A stretch of DNA of 64,000 nucleotides from the NCBI RefSeq assembly GCF_003334785.1, contig NZ_QOWV01000002.1; one strand, given 5' to 3'. The notes under the pieces are model-generated. The model searched no databases. It saw nothing but the letters and a program-made list of their open reading frames with translations, and was not told the DNA's origin. Origin of the DNA: Escherichia coli. GTDB taxonomy: Bacteria; Pseudomonadota; Gammaproteobacteria; Enterobacterales; Enterobacteriaceae. Every line of letters starts with the position of its first letter. Position 1 is the first letter of the stretch. This document shows positions 2,097 to 46,483 of this stretch, piece after piece. A program made the translations under genes and the position numbers.

Positions 2097-2292
2097 TTTC
2101 CTCTCCGGTGGCTAACGCTGCCGGAGTATTTTCATGGGGAATTTGCGAGTCAGCTTCCGCTGAAATGTAAAAGTTACAGTCCGCTAAAAATACTTCTGAA
2201 TTCGCTGTCCAAAGATAAAAACTGCCTGCTGCATTGGGTGTTAATCGTGGTTATTGTCGCGTCATCTTAAATTTGAGGGGTGACGGAACGCC

Positions 2293-3183
2293 ATGACAAT
2301 ATCGACAACTTCCACGCCGCATGATGCGGTATTTAAATCTTTTTTACGCCATCCAGACACCGCGCGGGATTTTATTGATATTCATCTTCCCGCGCCGCTG
2401 CGCAAACTGTGTGATTTAACGACGCTTAAACTGGAACCAAACAGTTTTATTGATGAAGACCTGCGGCAATATTATTCCGACCTCTTGTGGTCTGTGAAAA
2501 CGCAGGAGGGAGTGGGTTATATTTATGTAGTGATAGAGCACCAAAGTAAGCCGGAAGAATTAATGGCTTTTCGCATGATGCGTTATTCCATTGCGGCAAT
2601 GCAAAACCATCTTGATGCGGGCTATAAAGAGCTTCCATTGGTGCTCCCGATGCTGTTTTATCATGGTTGCAGAAGTCCTTATCCTTATTCACTCTGCTGG
2701 CTTGATGAATTTGCCGAGCCTGCTATAGCCCGCAAAATATATTCATCGGCTTTTCCGTTGGTGGATATTACCGTGGTGCCGGATGACGAGATTATGCAAC
2801 ACCGCAAAATGGCGCTGTTGGAGTTAATTCAGAAACATATTCGTCAGCGCGATCTGTTGGGATTAGTCGACCAAATTGTTTCGCTGCTAGTTACAGGGAA
2901 CACTAATGACAGACAGCTAAAAGCCCTGTTTAATTACGTATTACAAACAGGGGATGCCCAGCGTTTTCGTGCATTTATTGGTGAGATAGCGGAACGCGCA
3001 CCACAAGAAAAGGAGAAACTGATGACCATTGCTGACAGATTACGTGAAGAAGGCGCAATGCAGGGCAAACACGAAGAAGCCCTGCGTATTGCTCAGGAGA
3101 TGCTGGATAGAGGTTTAGACAGAGAGTTAGTTATGATGGTGACCCGACTTTCACCAGACGATCTTATCGCGCAAAGCCACTAA
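2293..3183 (+). CDS. rpnB: Rpn-family recombination-promoting nuclease / PD-(D/E)XK transposase_31-like protein (296 aa)
   Basis: ORF 2293..3183; N-terminus [28 protein letters not shown] typical of YhgA/Rpn family; known yfcI position next to hisP. Confidence 0.88.
3022..3183 (+). CDS. Candidate intragenic small protein (53 aa) from internal in-frame start at 3' end of rpnB (RpnS-like)
   Basis: In-frame ATG at 3022 preceded by AAGGAG (3010-3015) with 6-nt spacer; would encode [53 protein letters not shown]. Confidence 0.4.
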
Positions 3184-3230
3184 TCCTGTAACACCGGGAG
3201 TTAACTGGCGGATGTTTGCTGTAAACCACA

Positions 3231-4124
3231 TCAGCGAACGACATCCGCCAGCGCCTCTTCTAAATCGTACCAGCGAAACGCAAAACCCGCTTCTTCCAGC
3301 CGTTTAGGCAGCGCGCGTTGTCCACCTAATACCAGTACTGAAGATTCGCCCATTAACAGTCGAATGGCGGTCGCGGGGACGCGCAAAATGGCCGGGCGAT
3401 GCAGCGCATGACCGAGCGCATGGGCAAATTGTTCATTGCGTACCGGGTAGGGCGAAACCATATTAAATGGCCCGCGCAGCTCGTTATCCAGCAGCCAGAG
3501 AATACCGTTGACCATATCATCAATATGAATCCAGGCCAGATACTGCCGACCAGAGCCAATCGGCCCGCCCAGGCCAAGACGAAACGGCGGCAGCATTTTA
3601 CCGAGAATACCGCCATCCGGTGCCAGCACTACACCGGTACGCAGCAGGCACACTCGCGTTTTGTCACTTTGCGCCCGGCAGGCAATTTCTTCCCAGCGAG
3701 CGCAGAGTTTATGGGTAAATTCGTTATGCGGCGGTTCCTCTTCGGTAACCACCACTTCACCTAAGTCACCATAATAGCCCGTTGCCGAGCCGGAAATGAG
3801 TACCGACGGTGGCGTGTCGCTGGCATTAATCAAATCGACCAGTTTTTGCGTGATATTCCAGCGGCTTTGGCAGAGACGCTCTTTTTGCTCGTGAGTCCAG
3901 CGTTTATCAGCAATCGGTTCTCCGGCCAGGTTGATTACCGCATCAACGCCGTTGAGGTTGCTTTGATCGGCAAGCCCTTGCCATAGTGTCACCCGAGGGC
4001 CGAGAACGGAACTGGCTTTCTGCGGGTTACGCGTCACTACCGTAATTTGATGGCCCAGCTCCAGCAAACGCGGAATCAAATGGCGACCAATTAATCCTGT
4101 CCCTCCGGTGATCACTATGTTCAT
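3231..4124 (-). CDS. yfcH: NAD-dependent epimerase/dehydratase family protein YfcH (297 aa)
   Basis: N-terminal Rossmann motif [16 protein letters not shown]; ORF 3231..4124. Confidence 0.9.
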
Positions 4125-45187: not shown

Positions 45188-46483
45188 GTGCAATCACTTA
45201 CTACGGCGCTGGAAAATCTACTGCGCCATTTGTCGCAAGAGATTCCGGCGACACCCGGCATTCGGGTTATCGATATTCCTTTCCCTCTCAAAGACGCTTT
45301 TGATGCCTTGAGCTGGCTGGCCAGTCAGCAAACATACCCGCAATTCTACTGGCAACAACGTAATGGTGATGAAGAAGCTGTCGTCCTGGGCGCGATTACC
45401 CGTTTTACGTCGTTGGACCAGGCACAACGTTTTCTTCGCCAGCACCCGGAACACGCCGACTTACGCATTTGGGGGCTGAATGCTTTTGACCCGTCGCAGG
45501 GCAATTTACTTTTACCCCGCCTGGAATGGCGACGCTGTGGCGGTAAAGCCACGCTGCGGCTGACGCTATTCAGCGAAAGCTCCCTTCAGCACGATGCGAT
45601 TCAGGCAAAAGAATTTATCGCCACACTGGTGAGTATCAAGCCCTTGCCTGGGTTACATTTAACCACCACGCGAGAACAACACTGGCCGGACAAAACGGGC
45701 TGGACGCAATTAATCGAACTGGCAACGAAAACCATCGCCGAAGGTGAGCTCGACAAAGTGGTGCTCGCTCGGGCAACTGACCTGCATTTCGCAAGTCCGG
45801 TCAACGCGGCGGCGATGATGGCTGCCAGTCGTCGACTGAATCTGAATTGCTACCATTTTTACATGGCCTTTGATGGCGAAAATGCTTTTCTTGGCTCTTC
45901 ACCGGAACGGTTATGGCGGCGGCGTGACAAAGCGCTGCGTACTGAAGCGCTGGCGGGAACAGTAGCAAATAATCCTGATGATAAGCAGGCGCAGCAGTTA
46001 GGAGAGTGGCTGATGGCGGATGATAAAAACCAGCGCGAGAACATGCTGGTGGTGGAAGATATCTGTCAACGATTACAGGCCGATACCCAGACGCTGGATG
46101 TTTTACCGCCGCAGGTACTGCGTCTGCGTAAAGTGCAGCATCTTCGCCGCTGTATCTGGACTTCACTCAACAAAGCGGATGATGTGATCTGTTTACATCA
46201 GTTGCAGCCAACGGCAGCAGTTGCTGGCTTACCGCGCGATCTGGCGCGACAGTTTATCGCCCGTCACGAACCGTTCACCCGAGAATGGTACGCCGGTTCT
46301 GCGGGCTATCTCTCATTACAACAAAGCGAATTCTGCGTTTCCCTGCGCTCAGCAAAAATTAGCGGCAATGTCGTGCGATTATATGCTGGCGCGGGCATTG
46401 TCCGTGGTTCCGACCCCGAGCAAGAGTGGCAGGAAATCGACAACAAAGCGGCAGGGCTGCGTACTTTATTACAAATGGAATAG
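45188..46483 (+). CDS. menF: Isochorismate synthase MenF (431 aa)
   Basis: ORF 45188..46483, GTG start; first gene of menaquinone cluster. Confidence 0.93.

Follow-up and report, generated by a model that had tools for sequence, protein, structure and literature searches.

The 3′ end of rpnB in Escherichia coli raises the question of whether it encodes a second, smaller protein that is translated in frame from a start inside the nuclease gene. The window is the whole stretch of E. coli DNA that was analysed, 64,000 nucleotides, and its first 4.5 kb are the reverse complement of E. coli K-12 MG1655 2,421,000-2,425,500, with 0 mismatches in 4501 nt. The + strand carries hisQ, hisM, hisP, a hairpin, and rpnB in this order, followed by the convergent yfcH on the - strand. 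The stop of hisP is at 2096 (+), and the terminator-like hairpin lies just 3′ of the gene at 2103-2126. The gene rpnB (yfcI, b2305), which encodes the 296-aa toxin RpnBL, occupies 2293..3183 (+), and yfcH is placed at 3231-4124 (-) by the ORF list. The spacer from the rpnB stop to yfcH is just 47 nt.

RpnBL is a DNA endonuclease of the PD-(D/E)XK type. It matches Pfam PF04754 (Transposase_31) over residues 8-209 and model positions 1-202 of 203 with an E value of 2.8e-90. Its score against NCBIfam TIGR01784, titled 'Rpn family recombination-promoting nuclease/putative transposase', is 186.9 bits, where the cutoff is 52.1. RefSeq uses the name rpnB in MG1655 and for every full-length E. coli match listed. 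The residues D11, D63, E82, Q84, R94, and D165 (RpnA numbering), whose importance in RpnA was established by mutation (Kingston et al. 2017, PMC5350276), are invariant columns in the Rpn alignment, RpnB included. D165 is held in the motif PDDEIMQH at RpnB residues 163-170. The predicted catalytic core codons span 2479..2544 (+) and comprise D63 (2479-2481), E82 (2536-2538), and Q84 (2542-2544). Judged by its domain and active-site residues, the rpnB product is an Rpn / YhgA-like nuclease. Its over-expression kills 98.7 % of ΔrecA recipient cells, recorded as CFU loss, and RpnB is among the fastest SOS inducers when over-expressed; it is the more toxic paralogue when compared to RpnA, which is the one protein that the in vitro nuclease assay of that study covers (PMC5350276). 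No RpnB paralogue was found within the window by tblastn, where rpnB alone matched, and rpnE lies outside the window.

The internal start consists of the Shine-Dalgarno (SD) sequence AAGGAG at 3010..3015 (+), which coincides with codons K240-E241, the 6-nt spacer aaactg at 3016-3021 (+), and an ATG at 3022-3024 (+). This ATG is codon M244 and is in frame with rpnB, since (3022-2293) mod 3 = 0. The resulting rpnBS reading frame, 3022..3183 (+), comprises 53 aa and the stop codon 3181-3183, and its product is the C-terminal tail of RpnBL. The SD, the 6-nt spacing, the in-frame ATG, and the 53-aa product had been given in the initial annotation, and re-reading and translating the sequence reproduces each of them exactly. 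In the MG1655 RefSeq record, NC_000913.3 2422649-2423539, rpnB is one CDS and RpnBS has no separate feature; the short forms of rpnA, rpnC, and rpnE are likewise without one. The record still marks ypaA as a pseudogene, and PMC10400941 describes ypaA as a free-standing, expressed copy of the RpnE tail.

The frequency of such signals was estimated from ORFs of the window, on either strand, that begin with ATG and reach at least 150 aa; they contain 18,157 internal codons and 441 in-frame ATGs. An SD core of at least 5 nt, located 4-10 nt upstream, precedes two of these 441 internal ATGs, namely 3022 and 46013, and the full AAGGAG is found at ATG 3022 alone. The ORFs are mechanical calls, and the rate is therefore a rough one of about 0.2-0.5 %. 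The test shows the rarity of the signal at ATG 3022 and not its function, which comes from conservation and the literature. A 100-nt RNA centred on the internal start does not fold above shuffled controls (z +1.13), and both the SD and the ATG are unpaired in the centroid structure. The other site, ATG 46013, has AGGAG 8 nt upstream and is located inside a 431-aa ORF at 45188-46483 (+), upstream of a menD-like gene. This ORF is presumably menF, isochorismate synthase, and a start at 46013 would yield a 156-aa C-terminal product.

The small protein of rpnB has a published history. The long and short forms of MG1655 RpnB, RpnBL and RpnBS, are the subject of experimental work by Zhong et al., PNAS 2023 (PMC10400941), and the locus, gene, internal start, and 53-aa product are identical to those of the window, with no difference. 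Ribosome profiling with Onc112 and retapamulin gives a signal in rpnB (Fig 2C), and RpnBS was detected on an immunoblot from the SPA-tagged chromosomal gene (Fig 2G). Over-expressed RpnBL*, with its RBS and iTIS mutated, inhibits growth more strongly than the wild-type gene (Fig 3B). RpnBS provided in trans lowers the RpnB-dependent induction of dinD-lacZ (SOS) and RpnAS does not, and this suppression is lost when D29 of RpnBS is replaced by a stop codon. In rpnA, the equivalent SD and start changes K240R, E241D, and M244L abolish RpnAS (PMC10400941). The initiation signal, the product, the higher toxicity without the internal start, and the specific SOS suppression have thus been shown for RpnB by others. 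The internal start in rpnB is a published locus that was rediscovered correctly, and it is not a new finding.

The published numbering also fixes the position of the start. Residue 29 is D only if counted from M244 (ATG 3022), and not from any other in-frame Met. The D29 numbering fits solely M244, which indicates that the published RpnBS starts at ATG 3022, and by the same numbering the ribosome-profiling peak in rpnB would be at this ATG. ATG 3022 is almost certainly the start of the RpnBS antitoxin. The proposal of an intragenic antitoxin read from an internal start is borne out for MG1655 rpnB by the experiments in PMC10400941, the D29 numbering, the conservation of the start, and a structural match to 7TH0. 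The small protein, which had been introduced as a candidate, is real, and in view of its publication (PMC10400941) that word no longer applies. A reading made from the sequence alone thus recovered a validated internal start that MG1655 RefSeq does not list as a CDS.

Conservation was followed in 13 Rpn homologues from annotated records, comprising the four K-12 paralogues and nine plasmid homologues. The latter are 48-55 % identical to RpnB and come from Escherichia (two plasmids), Salmonella, Klebsiella, Yersinia, Raoultella, Pantoea, Arsenophonus, and Vibrio. M244 is invariant and is preceded by an SD-like core 5-9 nt upstream in 13/13 homologues, which share 48-70 % identity. The genes rpnA and rpnE likewise have AAGGAG, 6 nt, and ATG at codon 244, and rpnC has GGAGGGGAG ahead of its M244 equivalent. 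In all nine plasmid homologues the SD-like core is GGAG, GAGG, or GGGGA. The residues that the SD nucleotides encode vary between homologues as KE, ED, GD, EG, and EE. The core is kept even though the encoded residues change, and this suggests a constraint on the nucleotides rather than conservation of the residues.

The 53-mer also resembles a protein of known structure. A phmmer search of PDB sequences pairs RpnB 244-295 with residues 1-48 of 7th0_A, whose 49 residues are entered as 'Recombination-promoting nuclease RpnA'. M244 aligns with residue 1 of this chain, and the crystallised RpnA-S therefore begins at the homologue of M244. The fold of RpnBS is predicted to be a compact bundle of three α-helices with a long first helix: an AlphaFold2 model of the 53-mer, computed from an alignment of 16 tail sequences, has a pLDDT of 76.5 and helices at 3-29, 34-41, and 45-49. 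Foldseek places 7TH0, 'E. coli RpnA-S', first among the PDB matches to this model, with a probability of 1.00, TM scores of 0.69/0.78, an rmsd of 2.4 A, and 43 % identity, and no other match has an E value below 1.

Other searches with the short protein gave little. Designer pentatricopeptide-repeat (PPR) proteins were the top matches in the PDB sequence search, with E values down to 3e-10, and they were rejected, as the individual stretches have i-E values above 100. The PPR matches are an artefact, because the score sums many weak matches to a repeated target. The segment responsible is a helix-turn-helix at RpnB residues 253-287 (window 3049-3153), which weakly resembles every PPR unit. Designer PPRs rank above the true homologue 7TH0 here, and caution is needed with short helical queries. 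Some free-standing RpnS genes are annotated as Pfam DUF4351 (PF14261) (PMC10400941). This profile is matched neither by full-length RpnB nor by the 53-mer or any of the 16 aligned tails, so RpnBS is not filed under DUF4351; Pfam finds only sub-threshold HTH-like noise on the tail. No model of PADLOC-DB 2.0.0, a library from 2023 that may pre-date Rpn, matches RpnBL or RpnBS.

These data bear on two other accounts of the sequence at 3010-3024. The AAGGAG and ATG might merely reflect the coding of Lys-Glu-Lys-Leu-Met by coincidence, with no separate protein or a functionless one. SD-like hexamers do arise in genes by chance, 46013 being another in-frame 5-nt case in the window, and the single rpnB CDS of MG1655 RefSeq agrees with such an account. 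A coincidence, however, is hardly conceivable when 13 homologues all keep the Met and an SD-like core although their SD-encoded residues differ, and when ATG 3022 matches residue 1 of the crystallised RpnA-S; it had already been refuted in PMC10400941, where SPA-tagged RpnBS was detected and mutation of the RBS and start led to loss of the antitoxin effect. A small protein could instead arise from another internal start, such as ATG 3058 (M256, 41 aa) or ATG 3100 (M270). There are in-frame ATGs downstream at M256, M270, M281, and M282, and GAAGAAGG is present ahead of ATG 3058. However, all four are without an SD core of at least 5 nt at the proper spacing, and the downstream Mets are not conserved among the homologues. 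When counting from M256, D is found at 17, 21, 34, and 35, and not at 29, and the RpnA-S of 7TH0 begins at the M244 equivalent, which makes an alternative start extremely improbable.

A different question is what RpnBS does once it is made. It might be mainly a positive subunit or an HTH-like DNA-binding cofactor, as Cas11d is, rather than an inhibitor. The small fold of three helices, with its weak HTH-like similarities, would suit this role, and an HHpred remark in PMC10400941 points the same way. RpnD without its last 45 residues is less active and not more active (PMC5350276), which indicates that, as part of the long protein, the tail has a share in its activity as well. The behaviour of the separate short protein makes the cofactor role very unlikely, as loss of RpnBS expression raises toxicity, RpnBS in trans lowers SOS specifically, and RpnAS blocks cleavage by RpnAL in vitro (PMC10400941). 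An antitoxin that starts at ATG 3022 is by far the best reading of RpnBS.

On this basis rpnB is a gene within a gene, coding for both the toxin and the antitoxin of one pair. Translation from ATG 2293 gives RpnBL of 296 aa, whose over-production damages DNA, induces SOS, and inhibits growth. Independent initiation by ribosomes at AAGGAG-N6-ATG (3010-3024) gives RpnBS, a 53-aa protein with a predicted three-helix fold. This initiation takes place largely on a shorter and more abundant transcript that starts inside rpnB, according to published dRNA-seq. By analogy with RpnA, RpnBS would bind the matching tail of RpnBL via its long first helix and block the nuclease. Changes of 12 nt (four residues) in this helix would reset the partner specificity. 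RpnBL and RpnBS co-evolve obligatorily because both are read from the same DNA. An antitoxin read inside its own toxin gene, which forces this co-evolution, serves as a model of concealed "genes within genes", and the significance of this belongs to the 2023 publication.

The internal transcript is the step of this scheme for which the sequence offers little guidance. PMC10400941 reports from dRNA-seq that an internal TSS gives rise to a short transcript that outnumbers the full-length mRNA in all rpn genes. A search for the sigma-70 consensus promoter gave no match on the + strand at 2524-3022. When the 260 nt ahead of the start in rpnB, rpnA, rpnC, and rpnE were scanned with relaxed -10/-35 criteria, no convincing site emerged, and the only candidates were weak ones 181-253 nt upstream and within conserved codons. 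The shared -10-like hexamers are CATATT at -181 and GATTAT/AATCAT/GATCAT at -227. They are within the conserved QKHIRQRD and PDDEIMQH codons and therefore cannot be separated from protein constraint. As no promoter was found from the sequence, the internal transcript rests on the dRNA-seq cited in PMC10400941. The negative promoter search, like the negative DUF4351 and PADLOC-DB results, does not conflict with the reading of RpnBS as an antitoxin.

Among the paralogues, RpnAL/RpnAS (yhgA; PDB 7TH0) is the one whose structure and biochemistry have been characterised. As in rpnB, an AAGGAG-N6-ATG signal is present at codon 244, and the identity between the long proteins is 66 %. In contrast, the tails are about 47 % identical, with 49 aa in RpnAS and 53 aa in RpnBS, and the two antitoxins show no cross-protection (PMC10400941). 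The RpnS of RpnA is a dimeric three-helix bundle with the long first helices as its interface, and RpnAS co-purifies with RpnAL (PMC10400941). Direct binding and in vitro inhibition of cleavage were measured for RpnA only. In RpnC, one extra four-residue repeat in one partner breaks neutralisation, and the same repeat in both partners restores it (PMC10400941). By analogy with RpnA or RpnC, RpnBL and RpnBS may bind directly through such a dimer interface with a specificity that depends on the repeats.

Plasmid systems share the basic design. RpnP2LS, like rpnB, consists of a long nuclease and an internal antitoxin, and it protects against T-even and BASEL phages, with T-even protection being stronger at alkaline pH (PMC10400941). 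The four-residue repeats are more numerous in plasmid Rpn homologues, some of which are also followed by an additional, free-standing RpnS-like gene, whereas rpnB has neither feature. In the plasmid loci L011 (1173-1394) and L019 (1274-1468), a small 'hypothetical protein' CDS after E. coli rpn is a second copy of the RpnS tail. These free-standing copies show 61 % and 46 % identity to the tail of the rpn gene that precedes them, with E values of 2e-17 and 2e-16, and the L011 CDS as annotated has 21 extra N-terminal residues ahead of an MTIAERL start. Both correspond to the RpnSs class as it is described in PMC10400941, and no such copy follows rpnB in the window.

Two further comparisons concern the type of system. 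Classical type II toxin-antitoxin systems would resemble RpnBLS in having a protein antitoxin that binds the toxin directly and is made in excess. In contrast, the Rpn antitoxin is not a separate gene product but the toxin's own in-frame C-terminal proteoform, and for this reason the RpnBL and RpnBS sequences cannot diverge independently. The suggested trigger is release of RpnS rather than its degradation (PMC10400941). Cas10d/Cas11d is like RpnBLS in that a small protein comes from an in-frame internal start in a larger gene (PMC10400941). Cas11d, however, is a cooperating subunit required for function, while RpnBS antagonises its long form.

Within E. coli, the start signal and the remainder of the RpnBS tail have different degrees of variation. 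Four rpnB alleles have an identical SD, ATG, and first ten codons. Beyond these codons, nucleotide divergence in the tail is 5.6-13 %, compared to 1.5-2.7 % in the N-terminal 729 nt. The RpnBS-coding tail is 4-7 times more diverged than the nuclease domain, and the changes are mostly non-synonymous. Among the tail differences, a 14-residue stretch of K-12 is replaced by MMEKGFDHEVILTL in UTI89, and the ending DDLIAQSH is replaced by EELLNQKQ. In the strain GF131, homology to the K-12 locus stops inside the tail, and the next gene encodes a PLP-dependent aminotransferase instead of yfcH.

A site of four-amino-acid (12-nt) length variation is found at 3052..3066 (+), in the first helix of RpnBS and RpnBL, where K-12 has G11-A-M-Q-G15. 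In the rpnB allele of O104:H4, 12 additional nt directly follow codon E253 (position 3051), which is residue 10 of RpnBS, and the allele reads EGRNDGLILGK where K-12 reads EGAMQGK. A span of 1213 nt instead of 1201 nt is present in 6 of the 26 full-length E. coli rows sampled. The plasmid homologues contain 1-6 G-x-x-x units at the equivalent point, and PMC10400941 places the four-residue repeats 8-20 residues past the initiating Met. RpnS proteins might be annotated systematically by a family-wide signature that combines a Met without variation, an SD-like core preserved in the nucleotides, and, about 10 residues further on, hypervariable repeats of four residues.

The gene itself is also variable in its occurrence. 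A segment of about 1.0 kb, 2202..3204 (+), which contains rpnB with its upstream region, is found in most E. coli genomes and is missing from some. Window positions 2100-3300 are covered to at least 80 % in 4746 of 5426 complete E. coli genomes, and the remainder match the yfcH end alone. In about 680 of the 5426, the ~1-kb segment is missing and hisP adjoins yfcH. In strain Ec55, yfcH comes directly after hisP, and the ~1003-nt rpnB segment gives way to about 28 unrelated nt. By alignment, homology stops near 2201 and resumes near 3205, and no target-site duplication or mobile-element hallmark was seen at these junctions in the Ec55 comparison. According to PMC10400941, rpn genes move between genomes horizontally but are not conventional transposons, and the segment polymorphism fits this statement. 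About 12 % of complete genomes have hisP-yfcH without rpnB, so the adjacency to hisP, which had been presented as the context of the module, is incidental and has no functional meaning.

The module had further been described as toxin/antitoxin-like or as a phage-defence module. The toxin-antitoxin part has been demonstrated for RpnB, and defence has been demonstrated only for plasmid RpnP2LS in PMC10400941, whose authors add that some Rpn proteins may have roles other than defence. A role of RpnB in phage defence would thus be by analogy with RpnP2 only. It is possible but rather doubtful that chromosomal K-12 RpnBLS is an active phage-triggered defence, in which the short-tail allele, lacking the additional four-residue unit of O104:H4-type alleles, would set the releasing phage factor and the hisP-yfcH polymorphism would reflect selection on defence. 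The variation in alleles and occupancy is the sole part of the present data that touches this reading.

The region downstream of rpnB contains the inverted repeat CTGGCGGATG...CATCCGCCAG at window 3205-3251, which spans the end of yfcH (stop 3231-3233, - strand) and the rpnB-yfcH spacer. The right boundary of the rpnB indel, at about 3205, is at the left arm of this repeat, and the repeat may terminate transcription of the convergent genes rpnB and yfcH.
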